A stretch of DNA of 64,000 nucleotides from Naegleria gruberi (taxonomy: Eukaryota): NCBI GenBank assembly GCA_000004985.1, contig GG738878.1. One strand, written 5' to 3'. The translations under genes and the position numbers were made by a program. Within the stretch, counting starts at the first letter, position 1. Every line of letters starts with the position of its first letter. The notes under the pieces are model-generated. The model was not told the origin of the DNA and did not search any database. It saw nothing but the letters and a program-made list of their open reading frames with translations. This document shows, piece after piece, positions 52,830 to 64,000 of the stretch.

Positions 52830-53972
52830 TTATAAATTGTTCTTGGTCATGTATGCCTTGAGTTGTGACAAGAATGCAGGTTGAACATTATTCTCTTCCA
52901 TAAACTTTACATAACCTTTGAATTTTGGAGTGTTGATAATATCCTTAACTTTCTGACCTTTGAATTTACCAAATGGGAAAATACCCTCGCTATCGAATTT
53001 AAAACCCTTAGAAGCACCATCTTCTGAGGTTTCCTTTTTACGAGAGGTAGGTTCTTTCTTGTATTGAGCTGATCCATCATCCATACCAAAGTTATCAAAC
53101 AATGATGCTTCACTGTCAACAGAGTCAGGTGTCATCATGACAACTGGTTCCTCATCAGCTTCAACTTGTTCTTCAACATCTTGAGGAACTTGTTCTACTA
53201 CTGCTTCAGCTTGCTTTTTTGGAGTTGTGAACTTGCTCTTTTCAACATATGGATAGGTGAATTCTCTGTCATGTCTTCTGAAGAGTTTCTTGGTTGTCTT
53301 TTTAGTGACATGTTCACAGAAAGCTTCAACAACATTCTTAGCTCTCCATGCAATAATAAAGTTTGGATCCCAAAGCTCACTACCAATACCAATATCCTTA
53401 CAACATCTCATTAAGGCATTTGACTTGGCACCTTCAAGAGAACTTCCAATTGATTTATATCCTTGTTCATCAACAGTTTGCTCTCCAAATGATTGACTCA
53501 CAAATTGTCCTCTACAGAATAAACCATATTCTTGAAGGATACTTCCTCTCTCAATTTTAAATTCAGAGAGTGGAACTAAACACCATCCTCCAGGGCCGAA
53601 AGCCTTGTTCAAAATACGTCTATACTTAATTTCAGGCAAGTACAAAATACCATCAGGCTTAACTTCAATATCTTGATCTGGGAGTGGAGCCATTAAAATT
53701 TGGGCAATTTCTTCACTAAAAGGTTGTTTACCAATTCTTTCATAGACTGTTGTACCATTATTTGCTAAATCGGCTCCGACGAGAGAAGTAGTATTCATTG
53801 TTTGTTGATCAAATTCTTCACAAACTCTTGCTGATGATGAAAAATTTCTCACCGATGATAACAATCCCGAGGCAATAAATGATTGTGATGATGATTTAAA
53901 ACATTGTTTAATGCTGCAACAAGTATTCTTCTTGAGCAATGACGAAGTGGTAGCACGAATAGTAGCTTTCAT
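52830..53972 (-). CDS. MGM101: Mgm101, mitochondrial genome maintenance protein (Rad52-like), with a C-terminal extension.
   Basis: Contains KPDGILYLPEIKYRRILNKAFGPGGW and MRCCKDIGIGSELWDPNFI, the Mgm101 core signature. Confidence 0.75.
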   Translation of the reverse strand: MKATIRATTSSLLKKNTCCSIKQCFKSSSQSFIASGLLSSVRNFSSSARVCEEFDQQTMNTTSLVGADLANNGTTVYERIGKQPFSEEIAQILMAPLPDQDIEVKPDGILYLPEIKYRRILNKAFGPGGWCLVPLSEFKIERGSILQEYGLFCRGQFVSQSFGEQTVDEQGYKSIGSSLEGAKSNALMRCCKDIGIGSELWDPNFIIAWRAKNVVEAFCEHVTKKTTKKLFRRHDREFTYPYVEKSKFTTPKKQAEAVVEQVPQDVEEQVEADEEPVVMMTPDSVDSEASLFDNFGMDDGSAQYKKEPTSRKKETSEDGASKGFKFDSEGIFPFGKFKGQKVKDIINTPKFKGYVKFMEENNVQPAFLSQLKAYMTKNNL

Positions 53973-54833: not shown

Positions 54834-56381
54834 ATGAACACTACTATGTTTGATATTAAGAGTAAAATCAAGCAAATTAAAAACACCGTTCTTCAGATGA
54901 CTCCACTGGAGATCAAAGTCAGAGAATGTACAAGTAACGATTCTTGGGGAGTTAAATTGTCTGATAAATTAGAAGTTGCTGATCACAGTTTCAATTATGA
55001 AGACTTCAAGCTCATCTTCTCTGTTATCAGAATCAGATTGGCTGACGTTGGAAAGGATTGGAGACACGTCCAAAAGGGTATCCAACTTGTTGAATTTTTG
55101 GTCATTAACGGTTCTGAAAGATGTTTGGATGAAGCCAGAGACATGCAATCACTTATTCGTCAAATGAAGAACTTTAAATATGTTGATGATGACGGAAAGG
55201 ATTGGGGTGTTAACGTAAGAGATGCTGCTAAACACTTCTTGGAATTCATCAAGGATGAAGAAAAGATCAAGGAAGAAAGAGAAATTGCCAAACAACAAAA
55301 GGAAAAATATGAAGGTTTTTCTAGATCTGAAGCCAAGCACAAGTCTCGTACAACAGGTAGTTCTTCATCAGAAAAGAAGAAGAAGGAAAAGAAGCCATCC
55401 TATGATGATGAATATGATGCTCCTAAGAAGTCTACTTCTCGTTCTAGCTTTGAAGAAGAAGAATATGAACAAGAAGAAAAGCCAAGAGCTTCTTCTCCTG
55501 TCAATCAATCTGGTAGACCAAGAAAGCCATCTACTGGTACAACCCCATCATTCCAAACTACATCTCAACCAGTTAAACAAAAGGAAGATACTCTTATTGA
55601 TTTCTTTGATACACCAGTTACCACAACAACAAACCAATATAACAATAACAACTTTGGAAATAACAATGGTTTCGGAAATAATGGTTTGGCCAATAACTCT
55701 GGCTGGTCTCAACCAACTCAACCTGTCAATACTGGATTCAATCCAAGAACTGCTAGTACCCAACCAACAAACTCTGGATTTAACCCAAGAGGTAACAATG
55801 GTGCTTCATTCAACACTGGTGGTAATGATTTCGAAGCTAACTTTGATAGCTCTGGTTTTGATGATGGTTTCGGAACAAATGATGCTTTCAATAATGCTTC
55901 AGGTCAAGAAAAGAAGGATTCTACCTTGTTTGATATTTCAAGTGGTTTGGTTAACTTGGATCTTAATGAAACCAAGCAACAAACAACATCTCAACCAGTT
56001 AATCCATCTCAACCATCAGCTAACATGTCGTTGAAGGAATTGAAGAGATTGCAAGGAAACAATACACCAACCAAGCCTCCAGTCATGAATAATACCACTC
56101 CATCTTTCCCATCCAACACATCTTTCCCACCAAACAACAACTTTGGAGGTGGTTATCCAAATAACAATGGTTTCAACAATTACCCACCAAACAACAACAA
56201 TAACTTTGGTGGTTATCCAAACAACAACATGCCACCAAGAACTGGCGGAAATTATCCACCAAATAACAATTTTGGTAACATGCCACAACCAAGCGGATAT
56301 GGATACAATAATCAACCTGTCAATAATAATAGACCACCACAAAACAACAACAACAATGGAGGAGGTTTCGACTTTTTCTAA
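54834..56381 (+). CDS. ENTH-domain (epsin-like) protein with a long N/G/F-rich C-terminal tail.
   Basis: The N-terminal ENTH region is VRECTSNDSWGVKLSDKLEVADHSFNYEDFKLIFSVIRIRL...WRHVQKGIQLVEFLVINGSERCLDEARD. The tail has NNNFGG/YPNNN repeats. Confidence 0.75.
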   Translation: MNTTMFDIKSKIKQIKNTVLQMTPLEIKVRECTSNDSWGVKLSDKLEVADHSFNYEDFKLIFSVIRIRLADVGKDWRHVQKGIQLVEFLVINGSERCLDEARDMQSLIRQMKNFKYVDDDGKDWGVNVRDAAKHFLEFIKDEEKIKEEREIAKQQKEKYEGFSRSEAKHKSRTTGSSSSEKKKKEKKPSYDDEYDAPKKSTSRSSFEEEEYEQEEKPRASSPVNQSGRPRKPSTGTTPSFQTTSQPVKQKEDTLIDFFDTPVTTTTNQYNNNNFGNNNGFGNNGLANNSGWSQPTQPVNTGFNPRTASTQPTNSGFNPRGNNGASFNTGGNDFEANFDSSGFDDGFGTNDAFNNASGQEKKDSTLFDISSGLVNLDLNETKQQTTSQPVNPSQPSANMSLKELKRLQGNNTPTKPPVMNNTTPSFPSNTSFPPNNNFGGGYPNNNGFNNYPPNNNNNFGGYPNNNMPPRTGGNYPPNNNFGNMPQPSGYGYNNQPVNNNRPPQNNNNNGGGFDFF

Positions 56382-56413
56382 ATAAATTATCTATTAATCT
56401 ACTACATTGTATC

Positions 56414-56450
56414 TTATTATTTATTATTATTTATTATTATTTATTATTAA
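56414..56450. repeat. Short AT microsatellite, a 10-nt ttattattta-type unit repeated about 3.5 times, in the 3' flank of the ENTH gene.
   Basis: The sequence is cttattatttattattatttattattatttattattaa. Confidence 0.6.
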
Positions 56451-58070
56451 TTTTGTTTTTCGAGTGAGGATGAGGGAGAATTATTTTGGGTGGATGGAGT
56501 ATTGTTTGAAATGTTGGCAGACACTACAAAATCTTTCATTTTTGATGCCACATGTCTGAAAAAACTATGGAAGGCAAGGAAATTACCCTTACCTCTTCTA
56601 AATTCAATAAGTATTACGGTATCTGAAACAGTTCTGAGAATGGCTACATTAAGAGTAATGACCGAATCAGCCAAGTTCACATAGCACTTGATCAAATTGG
56701 TTCCTTTAAATTTTGGATTGGCTCTTTCTTCCCTTAATATTTGAAAAACTCTTTCCGAAATATCGTCAGCTTTTCCAATAGCAACTAATCTGGTTTGTCT
56801 TCGAATTAATAAATTATCTTGTCCTGTTGCCATTTTTGAAATTGATCCCATCACAAACTGAGATGCTATATCAAAAGCATTCATTCTAACCTCTGTTGGT
56901 TGATTCGTATTACTATTACTCCCCTGAGGAGGAGGTTGATCTATTTCCTTATAAAAACTATCCTTTACAGCTTCCTTCAAATCATTGTTGGAAATTTCAA
57001 TTTTGGGTGATTGAAGAACAACTCCAAAATCTTCCCTATATCCTATTTGGAACCATTTAGAGGCCTTTATATTTGGTATGGAATATCTCTTTTTTGGATT
57101 AACTTGCAACATTTTCGATATTAAATCCTTAGCTTCTTTTGACAGATGTGATGGGAATTCAACTTTTCCACTTTCTATTTTTTTAAATAAATTGTTAATG
57201 TTTCTATCATCGAATGGAAGTTCTACAAAATATTGAGTTAATAATCGCATCTTTTTCAAAATAATACATACTTCCTGTTAGCATTACATAGAGAATAACT
57301 CCCATCGACCAAATATCTGCTAAAAATCCATCATATCCTTTTTCCTTAATAACCTCTAAAAGAATATATATTCATGCACATGATGTAATTATTGTTGTTG
57401 TTTCATGAAGTTTGAATGTTGTTGTTATTGAATGGAAAATTGCATTTGAGATTGTGAGCCTCACTTTAGAACCATCAACAACTTACCTGGTGAGACATAG
57501 TTCGGAGTACCACATGTTGTTTTCAAGAGCTGTGACTTTCCCAGCTTGTTAGGCACAATACTACTCAAACCAAAGTCCTATTATTGTTGTTTAATTACAA
57601 TCCATCATTCTCTATCAATTACATACCGTTATTTTCAGTTTATCAAAAGAGTCTAAAAGTAAATTCTCTGGTTTCAAATCTCTGTGAGCGATACCCTGAT
57701 TGTGGCAATATTCGATTGCTGATACTAATTGATGAAAGTATCGTCTTGCAGTAATTTCATCAAACTTTTCAGCAGCCACAATTCTATCAAATAATTCTCC
57801 TCCTGTTACTAGTTCCATTATTACATAAATATTATTTTCAGTTTGTAGTACTTCTTTTAGATTTACAATATTAGGATGCTTCATAATCTTCATGATGGCA
57901 ATTTCTCTTTTTAATTGTGTTTCCATCTGTTCCTTCTTAATATAATTTAAATTCATAATCTTGATCGCATACGTCTCTCCAGTTTCCAAATCCCTCCCAA
58001 ATTTTACTTTTGAATATTTACCCTGGCCGAGCGTCCTCATAATTTCATAATTCGCAACAATCTTGACCAT
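56447..58070 (-). CDS. CIPK-like Ser/Thr protein kinase: SnRK/AMPK-related kinase domain, NAF/FISL-like motif and C-terminal regulatory region. Exons are complement(join(56447..57222,57271..57355,57487..57577,57627..58070)). There is a 1-nt frame problem in a G4 run at 57300-57304.
   Basis: Exon 1 has [11 protein letters not shown]...YAIKIM...[12 protein letters not shown]. Exon 2 has DFGLSS...[11 protein letters not shown]. Exon 3 should read [28 protein letters not shown], but the sequence has GGGG where GGG is needed. Exon 4 has LPFDDRN...[14 protein letters not shown] and then [16 protein letters not shown], the NAF-like motif. Introns are 49, 131 and 48 nt with GTATGT or GTAAGT donors. 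Confidence 0.75.
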
Positions 58071-59055
58071 TTTTTTTTATTAAGGTTTTTACAGTTTCCA
58101 GAATGATGATGTCGATTGAAGGAGAGACCAATCACCACTTCCAAACCAATCCGCAACAAGACCTCAATTTTTAAACAGCAACAACAGTAGCAGTGGCAGC
58201 AACATTAGCACTCAACATCAACTCGTGTTATTTGGAGTCAATTACCAGCCACATCTACAGTTGGTTCCAGCAGAACATTTGTTGGCGGTTGTTCTTCTTC
58301 TGAGGTATGAACACAAGTTCAAGGCGAACGAATACGGGCGGCCTAGGACAGAACGTGATGTTGATGCTACTGGTGTTTCGACTCAGGGGCCACAAGTTCA
58401 TCGGCTTTGACAATGCATCACGGCAATACATGATGATATAAAAGAGGAAATGAAAAAGTTTATTGAAATATTAAATATTTAATTGGATAGTGAGTGTTGT
58501 TTGGTTTTGAGGCAAATCAAGTTAACTGATGACCTTTAATAACTGTTATTGAGGCAAGAATTTCCTTATTTAAAGGAAGACGAATAAGGTTATTAAAAAA
58601 TAATTATTTTATGTTTTGTAAATTGAGATTTAGAATCCATCCCTATGAAATGATTTGAAATATTAAATTATGAAAATTATTGAAATCAAAGAATTATCTA
58701 AATAAGTAGTGTTACTATACTAATTTGATGATTATTGAATAAAAATGGATTTGTCGAGTCTCTTCTTAGTAAATGTTTACGGCTTACATTTAAGGTCTTT
58801 AAAATACTAACCATGGCATTCGCAGTACATTTACCAAAGCAAAAAGGAAATTGTAAAGATTACTTAACTTCAAAACATGTTGCAATTCGTTGCAAAGGAC
58901 GTATTATTCTCAATGGATGATAATTCTTCGAGTGACTGTCCATCTCAAAAAGCACAGTTTAATTGCTGTATGAAAAAGATAAACGTTACATTCAGAGATA
59001 ATTGTAATCCAAATGTCATTTCCTTCCTTGAACAGAAAAAAAATATCAACGTGAA

Positions 59056-59128
59056 GCTGGCGTAGCTCAGTCGGTAGAGCGTTGGTCTAATAAGCCATTG
59101 GTCGCCGGTTCGATCCCGTCCGTCAGCA
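59056..59128 (+). tRNA. tRNA-Ile(AAT). The anticodon stem and T-stem each carry one non-Watson-Crick pair.
   Basis: Reads GCTGGCG TA GCTC AGTCGGTA GAGC G TTGGT CTAATAA GCCAT TGGTC GCCGG TTCGATC CCGTC CGTCAGC A. The D-arm and T-loop are classic and the anticodon loop is CTAATAA. Mismatches are at 27-43 and 50-64. It could be a slightly degenerate copy. Confidence 0.6.
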
Positions 59129-59295
59129 AACATTTTATGAATTAAAACAATAATGTTTACCCTTTTAATTAAAATAAAAATTATATTCTATTTTTTGTTA
59201 AAATCTATTTCCATATTTTTTTGTCATTTAAAATAGAGAACAACTTTCCATGTTACCAATCACCAAACATCAAACATATTACAAATCAAAAAAAA

Positions 59296-59852
59296 ATGTC
59301 TCTCTCACAATACGATACCCGTGAACAAGCTGAAAAAGAAGGAGCGGTCGTTGCAAAGATTATCTTTGATAATGTTACTCTCGAGCAAGTAATACAAATC
59401 ATTTCCGATTATAAAAGTTATACCGAATTTGTTGAAGGAACAAACAAGGTTGAATATAAGGATACTGTTGAAGGTACTGATGGAAAGTGTTTGGATGTTT
59501 GGTGGAATGTCACTGTTGGTGGATTGAAAACTGTGGAATATACTTTGAGATTGTGTGTTTTTGAAGGTATGAAAATATTATAATAATTATTAGAATGTAA
59601 CCTAAATTATCATGATTTTTAATAGATGGATTATCTTGGCAAGAGACTGATCATGGTCCATTTAAGAAGAATCGTGGTGGATGGAAATTGAAACCAACCA
59701 CAGATGGAAAGGGAGTCGAAGCCACCTATATTGCTCTCATTGATTTCAATGTTTGGTGTCCTGGTTTCATCAAGGATTTCCTTGTTGGAAAGGGATTGAC
59801 AAAGACATTGGAAGCATTCAAGAAGAGACTTGCTGAAAAATTCAAAAATTAA
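59296..59852 (+). CDS. SRPBCC (Bet v 1 / START / polyketide-cyclase-like) fold protein, about 165 aa. Exons are join(59296..59566,59626..59852).
   Basis: ATG at 59296 after a run of A (MSLSQYDTREQAEKEG...). A 59-nt intron (GTATGA...TTAATAG) joins ...LRLCVFE-D-GLSWQETDHGPFKKNRGGWKLKPT...ALIDFNVWCPGFIKDFL. Confidence 0.55.
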
Positions 59853-60042
59853 TTCATAGAGTGGATTACAATAAATTCATCAGCAGATGAATTTAGAGTT
59901 TTATTTAAGTGGATTTTCTTAAGGGTAATGTTCAGAATTGACTGCGATTGGCGCTATTGGCGCAGTTGAGTAAAGTGGACATTTTCACAAACTCTTTGAA
60001 AGAGTTTCGAACAAAGAGTATTGAAATTGGAACTGAAAAAAA

Positions 60043-60871
60043 ATGATTCAAGGACATTATGGACCTGCAGGTTTATTACACTTCTTCTTTAGAGATATCT
60101 CCTTCACATGGCTAATGATTTCCACTCAGATCATTGACATGGTCTTTTTTGCTTTCGTATTGTGTTGTAAATTCGTTTGTAAAATGGAGATTCACTCATG
60201 TCCACAACCATTAGCTTGTTTGGAGTACAGTTCCTATAATGTTTCACTCATGAGAGAGAATCAAGCTGTTCCATTCAATGCTCAGAATGATATTTCACAT
60301 AGTTTGAGTGGAACTTTGATTTGGACTTTGGTTTTTACTGGAATTTATGTTTTGGTCAATTGGAGAAATAATTCTAGATCATTTGCTTCATTGTATGGTA
60401 TTTTCTTTTTGAGTATTTCGTCTCATTGGTTGTTGGATGTTGTGGTGAGAAGGTAAGAAATAGTTTTTATGAATTCTTATTCGAAATGTTATTAGAAATG
60501 ATGTTGCTGTTTTTCCACCATTCACATCGAACAAGATTGGACTTGGTACTTGGCAACACTTGTCAAAATTGAGTAATTATCTCATTGAAGTTGGAAGTGC
60601 CGTATTAGGATGGTTGTTTTTCTTCTTGGTAAGGAAATCATCCAAGTTGACAAAAGGTTTTTGGATTTCTTCACTTCTTTACTTTCTAATGACATTTGGA
60701 CTAATGTATGGAGTTTATTTTGCTGTGGATTATTCTAAAATTGCTGATTCTGTTCAAGATGGTTCTCCAACTTCACCTGATCAAATTCCATTCACCTATT
60801 TCACTTATGTACTTGTTGGAATACTTTCGTATTTCATGGAGAGAAAGGTCAGAGAAATTAAGACTGAATAA
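60043..60871 (+). CDS. Multi-pass membrane protein. Hypothetical, possibly DUF457-like His/Asp membrane hydrolase. Exons are join(60043..60452,60496..60871).
   Basis: ATG at 60043 after an A-rich leader. A 43-nt intron (GTAAGA...TATTAG) joins ...HWLLDVVVR-R-NDVAVFPPFTSNKIGLGTWQH... in frame. Several transmembrane helices. Confidence 0.5.
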
Positions 60872-61156
60872 TTATACCAACTTTCAACCCTCCCTATTAA
60901 ATTTCAATAATAAACAGATCAACTGAAATTGTATTCTTCCAATTACCACAGTTTTAATTTTTCTCGAAACTTGTTTTGTAAAAAAGGCAATTTGTCAAAA
61001 TTTGGGGAGTTGTGTGAAATATTACAATAATCAAAATATCTCACACTGCGCAATCCAACAGTCGAACGCTTGCACTATCCACATTGTGCGATTTCACCCG
61101 CACCTTATTTATCCAAAGATTACGCGCGTATCTTTGATAGTATCTCAATTTAAAAA

Positions 61157-64000
61157 ATGAAGACTTTTATTGCTACTGTCTTGTGGTTATCACTCATTTC
61201 CACCTTCCTTAGTTTAGTCCTAATTGTTACTGTTGTGAAGGGATTGAAAGTCGAACAAGAAACCTTTCGTTTACAACATTTTTCAAAGGATTACTCTGTT
61301 GATTCAATTATTCAACCAGTTTATCAAACATCAATGAAGTATTTACATGGCTCTGTTCTTTCTCTACTCTTCAATTCAGCTGCATGTCAATGGAATGGAT
61401 CCTATAGTTTAACATTATTAAATAATGATTATTTCCCAACCAATAGACCATACAATGATGTTATCACACGTTTGGAATCTGATTTAATTTACCTTGATTT
61501 GTCTAAATTAACATGTGTTAACAATTTAGAGCAAAAATATGCAATCATTACAATCAAGTTGAAGAGACGTGATATTGTGAATATTGATCCTTACAATTTG
61601 AGTGTGTTTAGTTTCGTTTTGAAGGATAGGTCACTGGTTTATGAGAATGTATCATTTTCAAATGGGGGAGTGAATGATTTGGAGAATGAATTCTCTTTTT
61701 CTTTGAAACAAGTATTTGAAAGTGGAAGAAACTATTTTGGTTTCCAATACTGGGTTGATTCTGATTACCATTCTCAAACTGGTATTCAAATTCGCTACCC
61801 AAAGGACATTACACTTTTAAATTCACATTTTATATCATCAATGGAGTTAAAATTTTCATACAATAGAGCTCCAATCATTAATCCAAATTTGGTCAACTCA
61901 ATTCCAGTAATTTCAGTATATAACGAATTTTATCAAGTGGAAGACAAATCAATTCCAAAACCATTCGATTATATTCTTTCAAAATCCAGAACTAGTTTAC
62001 AAAATAGAGGATTGAAACCTCTCATAGAGGAGAAATCAATGAGATTTCACTATGATGAGAGAAATGGGTTTAGAGATTCGAGTAATAATGTTTATTTCAT
62101 TGATCCATTCTCATTGGTTTGTGCCTTTTCATTTGGAGGGGATGATTATTTGAAGATTGATGAACAATCGAGAGTAATTGAAACTAAACATTCGAATTAT
62201 TTATTAGAATGTTCATCTAGTGAAATAACTGAAGATTATTCATGGACAATTTTGGCAAAGAAGAGTGATAAAAGACAGAAAGTGAATTGTTACTATGGAA
62301 AACCATGCCCATTATCCACTGATTCAATCTCTTCATTGACTTTATTTGCAGAAAACGATTTCGAAACTCTTAATATTTGGCCAGAACTTTCCTCAAACAT
62401 TTCTGGAAATTTGCTTTTGAAAAATCTTGAGAATTCTGAGGAATTGACGACTTATTCGCCGCCAAATACTTATCAGAAGCCACTCACATTGATTAATTGT
62501 TTTCAAGTTGATTTTTCACAATTGGTAATTTCCAAAAAAGGGCAAATCAACTTTGAGTTTAAAAAATCAACACAACCAAACGAAGATCCATTTTCAACAA
62601 GAATTTCAATTCTGGACAAACAAACCAGTTCCTTCTTTCTCTATCAAAAAGATTCTCCTACCAATTCAGATCTCAAATGGTCAATCAATCCATTGAATGA
62701 AAATGTTACATTTGGATTATGGAGCTATTCTCAATCTGAAGCAAAATTAGGTGATTTAGTGTTTGTCAATTATCCAAGAAATGTCAATTATCAATTGACA
62801 GATTCTCTCAGTATGAATGTTTACTTTAGTGGAGTTTCCATCTCAACTCCTAATTCATATCATAGACCCCACTTTACAATCAATCAATTCACACCAAATA
62901 TTTCATTACTGAATTATGTTATTCTTCAAAGTTTCCAAATGAATTATGGCGAAGGTTTGAATCATCTCGAATTTGATGAAGGAAGAATTTTCAATTTTTT
63001 TCCCACCACAACTCTGGTTGACCTTAATGGTAATAAGGCACAAGTTAAATTAACTGACCTGTCATGTGTCTATGTTTTGAAAAGTGAGAATTCTCAATAT
63101 TCGATTATTGAATTGAGTGATTTATATCCGAAATTCAGTAATGATGATGGAAGCTATCAATTGGATTGTTCAGAGGATGTTAGAGATGATGAATTTGTTT
63201 TCATGCTTGTTGGAAAACAATTTGAAAGAAAGTTTGTTTCTGGTGTTTATGGAATTCCAATAGAAGTGGATTCTGCACAGATTGTTTTATTCGAAACTAG
63301 GTGGTCTCCTTTGGATAAGTTTACAATTTCGGTTGATGTGAATACTGTTCTGAGAGGTGAATACATATTTATGGAAAAGCAAATTGAAGATTTTAAAGAT
63401 TATCCACTTTCAAATACGAATCAAAAGCCGTTGAATATTCTTGGAATCTTTGAACTTGATTATTCGAAAGTGACTTCTTCACTTGACATTGTTTCAGAAA
63501 ATTTGAATGGTTTATTTATTGAATTCCAAAAGAAAAGCTCCTTAACCAACACAGATCCTTCCTCTTTCAGATTTTTCAAACTCAATTCTTTCACAAAAGA
63601 CATTTGACTTGATGTTCAATGATCAACCATTCACAGGTCCTTGGGAGTTGATTGTTAGTGGAACAGGAAATGAGAAATCAATGATATTCGCTATTGCTGC
63701 ATTCCAAGACATTTCAGCATTGTTTAATCATGAATATCCACTTTCATATTCAAGACAATTACAATTCACAGTTGACCAAAGTGAATTAATGTATTCTTTT
63801 CAATTATCATCTTCCTTATCAACTTTATATCCTACTTTCCAATTGGATCTTAATACAACTCATTCCAATCAAACTATTATTGATCCAATTACAAAGATTG
63901 AATATGTCAAAATTCATTCATTTTCCATTCAGCAAGATATTCTAAACTATAATGTAAAATCGACCAGAAAGTTCACCTTCTCCTCAATTGGTTCCTCTCT
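61157..64000 (+). CDS. Large secreted or type-I membrane protein with an internally duplicated module of about 55 aa. It is partial and runs off the window. There is an apparent 1-nt frameshift at an A4 run near 63593-63596.
   Basis: Signal/TM start MKTFIATVLWLSLISTFLSLVLIVTV. Two modules repeat: YQKPLTLINCFQVDFSQLVISKKGQINFEFKKSTQPNEDPFSTRISILDK and NQKPLNILGIFELDYSKVTSSLDIVSENLNGLFIEFQKKSSLTNTDPSSFRFFKLN. After the TGA at 63605-63607 the +1 frame stays open to the window end. Deleting one A from ACAAAAGAC joins ...SFTKTFDLMFNDQPFTGPW.... Confidence 0.55.

Follow-up and report, generated by a model that had tools for sequence, protein, structure and literature searches.

A gene on the minus strand of Naegleria gruberi DNA, at positions 56447 to 58070 of the 64,000-nucleotide stretch analyzed here (contig GG738878.1; referred to below as the window), encodes NgrCIPK2, which on the basis of sequence comparisons and a structure model is very probably a CIPK (SnRK3-type) family member composed of a kinase domain, a NAF/FISL helix, and a PPI domain. 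Each of these parts is homologous to its counterpart in plant CIPKs, and a CBL-type partner is encoded in the same genome. CBL-CIPK pairs were long regarded as plant-specific. An earlier examination of the letters of the window (the sequence-only reading) recognized the gene correctly and rightly took the host, which is N. gruberi, to be something other than a plant; the gene is not new, having been named and analyzed in print in 2016.

Similarity to plant CIPKs

Among all PDB chains, those that best matched the full protein in a phmmer search were AtCIPK23 (317.6 bits) and AtCIPK24 (313.8 bits), over residues 5 to 441. Along these aligned residues the order of parts, from kinase domain through junction and NAF/FISL segment to PPI domain, is that of AtCIPK23 and CIPK24/SOS2 (structures 4czt, 4d28, and 2ehb). 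Pfam Pkinase covers residues 8 to 264 (E = 1.3e-79), and the catalytic landmarks are all present: the G-loop (15 to 22), K37, HRDLKPEN (129 to 136), DFG (149 to 151), and SPE (177 to 179). The activation-loop threonine and tyrosine of the plant proteins are kept as T168 and Y175, both of which are invariant in 44 homologues. When the kinase domain alone was compared with PDB chains, scores fell from CIPK24 (290.8 bits) and CIPK23 (290 bits) to Snf1 (253.7 bits), AMPK alpha-2 (244.4 bits), and MARK2 (236.9 bits), indicating that by score this domain is nearer to CIPKs than to SnRK1/AMPK or MARK.

The C-terminal 198 residues, searched against the PDB as a single sequence, had significant matches only to CIPK23 (E = 0.0021) and 2ehb_D (E = 0.0056), the latter being the SOS2 regulatory domain crystallized with SOS3. 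A profile of this region was built from the regulatory regions only of 24 protist relatives, with the kinase domain excluded. Its matches in the PDB were CIPK23 (1e-21), 2ehb_D (1.4e-18), CIPK24 (3.6e-18), and the CIPK14 regulatory domain 2zfd_B (3.1e-6), followed by the Chk1 KA1 domain (6.2e-5); no AMPK or MARK chain was matched by the profile. The best structural matches, the kinase scores, and the two strongest profile matches bear out the CIPK-family assignment proposed by the sequence-only reading. The PPI domain opens with IRRQTRL, in which L352 replaces the phenylalanine of the RxTRF found there in plant and most protist relatives.

An AlphaFold model of the exon 4 product only (residues 208 to 464) had a mean predicted local distance difference test (pLDDT) score of 79.6. 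Its last domain (residues 347 to 437, or 140 to 230 of the fragment) is predicted with a pLDDT of >93 and shows a beta-alpha-beta-beta-beta-alpha order. In a Foldseek search of the PDB, the C-terminal model aligned to 2ehb_D with a template modeling score (TMt) of 0.74 over 127 columns, and CIPK14 2zfd_B was also matched.

The motif stretch of 16 residues lies at residues 320 to 335 (56837 to 56884). The sequence-only reading had described such a motif behind a SnRK/AMPK-related kinase domain, which is the order found, but the spacing from the end of the Pfam kinase match is 56 residues rather than the approximately 70 then given. HMMER alignment places the NAF of NgrCIPK2 on the NAF of AtCIPK23 and AtCIPK24, with the whole regulatory region collinear: the motif falls on MNAFELIS... 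in AtCIPK23 and MNAFEMIT... in SOS2, and IRRQTR falls on VKRKTR/VKRQTR. A322 and F323 occupy conserved positions of the alignment (90% or more across the 44 homologues), and the residue preceding AF is aspartate in 26, asparagine in 11, threonine in 4, and glycine in 3. N321-A322-F323 begins a helix predicted, with moderate model confidence, at residues 322 to 338, which are 115 to 131 of the modeled fragment. The tripeptide NAF is by itself weak evidence, since about 0.036 occurrences are expected from composition in the 200-amino-acid tail; its position in a column conserved across the 44 homologues and its collinear alignment to the plant NAF indicate that it is not a chance occurrence.

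Gene structure and a corrected gene model

The gene and its parts, all on the minus strand, are as follows.

56447 to 58070, minus: NgrCIPK2 coding region, ATG at 58070 to 58068 and stop codon at 56449 to 56447, four exons assembled
57627 to 58070, minus: exon 1, residues 1 to 148, kinase N-lobe and catalytic loop HRDLKPEN, ending just short of DFG
57578 to 57626, minus: intron 1, 49 nt, GTATGT...TAG
57487 to 57577, minus: exon 2, DFG and activation loop with the invariant T168 and Y175
57356 to 57486, minus: intron 2, 131 nt, GTAAGT...TAG
57272 to 57355, minus: exon 3, 28 residues
57223 to 57271, minus: intron 3, 49 nt, GTATGT...TAG
57175 to 57222, minus: 48-nt segment omitted from the public model, completing the K207 codon and encoding 16 residues
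56447 to 57222, minus: exon 4, last part of the kinase C-lobe followed by the junction, the NAF/FISL motif, the PPI/KA1-like domain, a tail rich in S and N, and the stop codon
56822 to 56884, minus: NAF/FISL-type motif, residues 320 to 340, placed by alignments, predicted helix, and column conservation
56519 to 56809, minus: PPI-type regulatory domain with predicted KA1-like fold, residues 345 to 441, placed by profile search, model, and Foldseek

The spliced coding sequence of 1395 nt encodes 464 amino acids, and its three introns are all of the GT..AG type with GTAWGT donors. A tblastn search of the window with the 464-amino-acid product recovered the identical exon blocks, confirming the four-exon gene described by the sequence-only reading.

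In the public protein model, the acceptor AG of intron 3 is placed 48 nt downstream, such that exon 4 starts from 57174 and 16 residues are lost. These kinase residues are retained by the orthologues in N. fowleri and Willaertia and include the invariant P209, F210, L218, and I222. In the 464-amino-acid model, intron 3 is 49 nt long, equal in length to intron 1. Because the segment at 57175 to 57222 is conserved across all 43 aligned homologues, the 464-amino-acid model is very likely to be right over the public model of 448 amino acids. The correction is of practical use, as the 16 missing conserved kinase residues would matter to anyone expressing the protein.

Identity of the gene and earlier publication

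Once the 16 residues are removed, the window product is XP_002675473.1 (EFC42729.1; NAEGRDRAFT_69469), a protein of 448 amino acids encoded on a 395-kb scaffold. The closest database match to the window product was an N. gruberi "predicted protein" of 448 amino acids (97% identity, 100% query coverage). The identical sequence appears as NgrCIPK2 in Supplementary Table S1 of Beckmann, Edel, Batistic & Kudla 2016 (Sci Rep 6:31645; PMC4990929), a table that also holds the paralogue NgrCIPK1 (JGI 80321) and the sensor NgrCBL1. All 448 residues of the published NgrCIPK2 are identical to those of the window product, from which it differs in lacking the 16 residues encoded at 57175 to 57222. The table gives NgrCIPK2 under the identifier 69269, as opposed to the NCBI locus tag NAEGRDRAFT_69469.

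According to the 2016 paper (PMC4990929), the first notice of CBL/CIPK sequences in Naegleria and Trichomonas is credited to Batistic & Kudla 2009, NgrCIPK2 was found with a NAF hidden Markov model (HMM) whose settings are not given, and a Bayesian tree puts NgrCIPK2 among the CIPKs (Fig. 2B legend and section 5). The paper describes no Naegleria experiments, the Trichomonas pair being the one tested there, and a further full-text search of the literature turned up no functional study of CIPKs in Naegleria. The sequence-only reading considered the gene phylogenetically informative, on the grounds that the module occurs outside plants in just a few protists. Naegleria does belong among those few, but, as cited in PMC4990929, this had already been reported by Batistic & Kudla in 2009; because the argument was published then and again in 2016 on the basis of this gene, the window brings no new phylogenetic information.

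A CBL-type partner in the same genome

The genome search for a CBL-type EF-hand partner that the sequence-only reading had recommended was successful. NgrCBL1 of PMC4990929 is exactly XP_002671166.1 of N. gruberi, a CBL-type protein with four EF-hands that is encoded in the same genome as NgrCIPK2, on a separate 275-kb scaffold; no CBL gene was detected by tblastn within the window. The first EF loop of NgrCBL1, ISSSREDDGVIDKNEF, has the CBL-specific length of 14 residues and aligns without gaps to ISSAVIDDGLINKEEF of CBL2 and LSSSIIDDGLIHKEEF of SOS3, as opposed to a 2-residue gap against calcineurin B. At the C terminus, HPTMIGNMTI aligns with HPSLLKNMTL of CBL2, a CBL-like HPxxxxNMT pattern. 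In Supplementary Table S1 of PMC4990929, NgrCBL1 is given under AAF78251, which is the accession of the N. fowleri "calcineurin B."

Near-identical copies of NgrCBL1 occur in N. lovaniensis and N. fowleri, and orthologues of the sensor were found in Willaertia, in Acrasis, and in the jakobid Andalucia. Kinase and sensor occur together in N. fowleri, Willaertia, and Andalucia. The search with NgrCBL1, which returned 238 candidates, included no named euglenozoan proteins at an E value of ≤1e-35.

Relatives, paralogue, and distribution

The orthologues of NgrCIPK2 in N. fowleri (P0002) and Willaertia magna are 86% and 73% identical to it, respectively. Full-length relatives (approximately 48% identity at approximately 95% coverage) were found in Bodo saltans, Trypanoplasma, Diplonema, Percolomonas, and Andalucia, with numerous others among environmental sequences; a Trypanosoma cruzi fragment was also matched. 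The same regulatory domain is present in these CIPK-like kinases of kinetoplastids (Bodo, Trypanoplasma, and the T. cruzi fragment), diplonemids, Percolomonas, and the jakobid Andalucia, among them P0019, P0033, P0054, P0074, P0037, P0048, and P0103. DAF stands in place of NAF in 26 of the 44 relatives, and, as judged by sequence, relatives carrying either DAF or NAF are widespread in Discoba. The 2016 survey names "excavate" CIPKs from Heterolobosea and Trichomonas only and describes NAF as invariant (PMC4990929). The DAF/NAF kinases of Euglenozoa and jakobids would extend the range of the module in Discoba beyond that survey.

NgrCIPK1 and NgrCIPK2 share the same architecture. The NAF motif of NgrCIPK1 is LNAFDLASMLMMGSMNPL, and its PPI domain starts with KRQTRF; unlike NgrCIPK2, it retains both the protist-consensus NPL and TRF. 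PMC4990929 calls the duplication of N. gruberi CIPKs species-specific. In a neighbor-joining (NJ) tree, however, the groups (Willaertia P0003,(N. fowleri, NgrCIPK2)) and (Willaertia P0020, NgrCIPK1) each received 100% bootstrap support, and Willaertia has a third CIPK paralogue (P0073). Since Willaertia has a separate orthologue of NgrCIPK1 and of NgrCIPK2, the duplication predates the split of Naegleria and Willaertia and is not species-specific. The NJ tree, which was made from kinase domains with just two outgroups (a mis-assembled SnRK1 and a CaMK), was used for shallow orthology only.

Outside plants, the sole pair with tested interaction, Ca2+ binding, and kinase activity is TvCIPK-TvCBL1 of Trichomonas vaginalis, according to PMC4990929. 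It is likewise a non-plant "excavate" pair but belongs to another lineage (Parabasalia), which is described there as the most distant from plants.

Results that weigh against the assignment

A number of results count against reading NgrCIPK2 as a CIPK, and the first of them concern the motif itself. The sequence-only reading had claimed a match to NAFxxIxxSxG, but this literal pattern has no match in NgrCIPK2, and agreement with the plant consensus is limited to NAF-D-I, S327, the spacing of hydrophobic residues, and G332, which comes one position late. Of the 21-residue motif, NgrCIPK2 and AtCIPK23/SOS2 have in common just the initial NAF-D-[IL], S327, and that hydrophobic spacing; the glycine of NgrCIPK2 is shifted by one position, and the LSxLF end is absent. 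The latter half of the motif in plants (SxGxxLSxLF) has not been retained, and L352 stands for the phenylalanine of the PPI domain. In the NgrCIPK2 clade, moreover, the protist-consensus NPL after the glycine has become SKM or TKI, and the PPI-motif RxTRF has become RQTRL or RQTRV.

The Pfam NAF model (PF03822), which the sequence-only reading had named as a check, did not detect the motif: at E values of ≤10 there was no match on the full protein, the C-terminal 198 amino acids, or the 66-amino-acid motif region, and support for the assignment comes from the other evidence. There was likewise none for NgrCIPK1 or for the N. fowleri or Willaertia orthologues. Ten of the 44 relatives were matched by PF03822 at E values of ≤1 (best E, 0.0019), and the sole bit score seen, 17.6, is under the gathering cut-off of 25. 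An HMM of the NAF region made from Arabidopsis only (13 AtCIPK sequences of the supplement to the 2016 paper) gave 9.2 bits and rank 2 of 2001, with 1 of 2000 shuffles scoring higher, a result too weak to be used by itself. PF03822 in its current form appears to be tuned to plants. It misses heterolobosean CIPKs, including both of those from Naegleria, and HMM-based surveys therefore under-count the family outside plants; reliance on PF03822 alone would have led to a wrong rejection of the CIPK assignment.

The remaining points concern the fold, the sensor, and the tree. The C-terminal fold is common to the KA1-type domains of MARK, AMPK, and Chk1, and Foldseek matched the model to Chk1 KA1 (TMt 0.89; root mean square deviation, 1.4), to MARK1 KA1 (TMt 0.76), and to the C-terminal domain of AMPK alpha. 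Because this KA1-like fold is shared, and because the kinase C-lobe fragment in the model draws AMPK and MARK chains, Foldseek cannot discriminate a CIPK from MARK, AMPK, or Chk1. The predicted fold thus supports the architecture without discriminating among these families, whereas the sequence profiles do discriminate. Pairwise scores of NgrCBL1 with CBL2 (134 bits), fungal calcineurin B (123.6 bits), and SOS3 (120.7 bits) do not separate CBL from calcineurin B, and the N. fowleri copy is labelled "calcineurin B" in GenBank. Finally, the deep nodes of the NJ tree had negligible support, and TvaCIPK grouped with the outgroup. On the kinase phylogeny envisaged by the sequence-only reading, scores prefer CIPKs over Snf1, AMPK, and MARK, but our own tree does not resolve the deep nodes. 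The deep placement of NgrCIPK2 accordingly rests on the score gap, the homology of the regulatory domain, and the published Bayesian tree and not on the NJ tree.

Alternative explanations

The alternative that survives best is that NgrCIPK2 is a derived CIPK paralogue: following an ancient duplication, its PPI motif and the latter half of its FISL segment would have changed and control by CBL would have been loosened or lost, leaving the kinase independent of NgrCBL1 or with another partner, possibly with KA1-like membrane binding. The CIPK2 clade of Naegleria and Willaertia is alone in the protist family in changing both NPL and the phenylalanine of TRF, the duplication is old by the 100% bootstrap support of both orthologue groups, and one CBL is reported for two CIPKs in this genome (PMC4990929). 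The KA1-like C-terminal fold also fits, lipid binding having been suggested for such a domain (PMC3634423). However, the NAFD[IL]ASQ[FY] helix and the next segment are nearly unchanged across three genera at 73 to 86% overall identity, suggesting that the binding function has been kept. Plant CIPKs, too, vary chiefly in the loop that joins the two FISL helices and nevertheless bind CBLs (PMC3634423), and in plants one CBL for several CIPKs is normal. That the CIPK2 lineage is an old neofunctionalized branch in which control by the single CBL was changed or removed is an unlikely reading, although, if it is true, Heterolobosea would run two differently wired CIPK branches off one sensor.

It is very improbable that the gene encodes an ordinary CAMKL kinase of the AMPK/MARK type that ends in a KA1 tail and contains the tripeptide NAF by chance. 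In favor of such a kinase, the C-terminal half has its best Foldseek matches in KA1-autoinhibited chains of MARK1 and AMPK alpha, the Pfam NAF model has no match, and the expected number of NAF occurrences in the tail is the 0.036 given above. Pfam KA1 (PF02149; cut-off, 23) also gave weak matches in 14 of the 44 relatives, with Willaertia at 20.5 bits and Andalucia, at 25.5 bits, above the cut-off. A striking likeness of the PPI domain to KA1 has been reported (PMC3634423), which explains these weak matches. In NgrCIPK2 itself, a Pfam scan (E ≤ 1) found no UBA, AdenylateSensor (PF16579), or KA1 match. The last approximately 95 residues share their fold with MARK/Par-1, AMPK alpha, and Chk1, but unlike MARK and AMPK, NgrCIPK2 is without a UBA or AdenylateSensor domain, and a NAF helix precedes its KA1-like domain. 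The C-terminal profile is strong only on CIPK regulatory domains (1e-21 to 3e-6) and misses every MARK and AMPK chain, CIPKs score higher by approximately 37 bits on the kinase domain alone, and [ND]AF stands in a conserved column aligned to the plant NAF. The Bayesian tree of PMC4990929, moreover, groups NgrCIPK2 with CIPKs.

The least credible explanation is that the gene was recently transferred horizontally from a plant or green alga or is a contaminant: the closest solved structures are indeed Arabidopsis proteins, but we know of no non-plant CIPK structures that could compete with them, and the gene has three short spliceosomal introns, a G+C content of approximately 0.31 to 0.34 like its neighbors, native-looking neighbors (Mgm101, an ENTH protein, and tRNA-Ile), and Discoba relatives that are approximately 48% identical, as opposed to 40% for the plant CIPK of Artemisia (P0117).

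Proposed mode of action

If NgrCIPK2 functions as a CIPK, its mode of action can be sketched by homology to the plant SOS3-SOS2 and CBL2-CIPK14 complexes (PMC3634423) and to the Trichomonas pair (PMC4990929). In the resting state, the kinase would be kept autoinhibited by its NAF/FISL segment. Ca2+-loaded NgrCBL1 would then bury the amphipathic NAF helix in its hydrophobic cleft and thereby release the kinase, and phosphorylation of T168 in the activation loop would add activity. The PPI/KA1-like domain, by the same analogy, would be a surface to which a PP2C phosphatase, and possibly acidic lipids as well, could bind.

Genomic context

The window is AT-rich, with a G+C content of 34%, and the composition of the kinase gene is the same as that of its neighbors. 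The following features lie around it.

52830 to 53972, minus: Mgm101 mitochondrial genome maintenance gene (Pfam Mgm101p, E = 1.4e-72)
54834 to 56381, plus: gene for an ENTH-domain (epsin-like) protein whose long tail is rich in N, P, and G; the gene converges on the kinase gene
59056 to 59128, plus: tRNA-Ile, anticodon AAT (Rfam, 59.9 bits; ARAGORN agrees), approximately 1 kb upstream of the kinase start

The Mgm101 gene, which the sequence-only reading had cited as an argument against a plant host, is thus present in the window. The stop codons of the ENTH and kinase genes are 65 bp apart (56382 to 56446), and an AT-rich, (TTATT)n-like repeat lies between them. An Rfam scan of positions 55500 to 61500 found the tRNA only. 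Just upstream of the kinase ATG, the segment from 58080 to 58450 has a G+C content of 0.39 to 0.41, compared with 0.25 in flanking intergenic DNA; it holds short open reading frames only, has no Rfam match, and may be a 5' untranslated region, a promoter, or an unannotated small feature. Elsewhere in the window, a second open reading frame, at 38058 to 39416 (minus strand), is weakly kinase-like and matches the CIPK catalytic core at 29% over 134 amino acids by tblastn.

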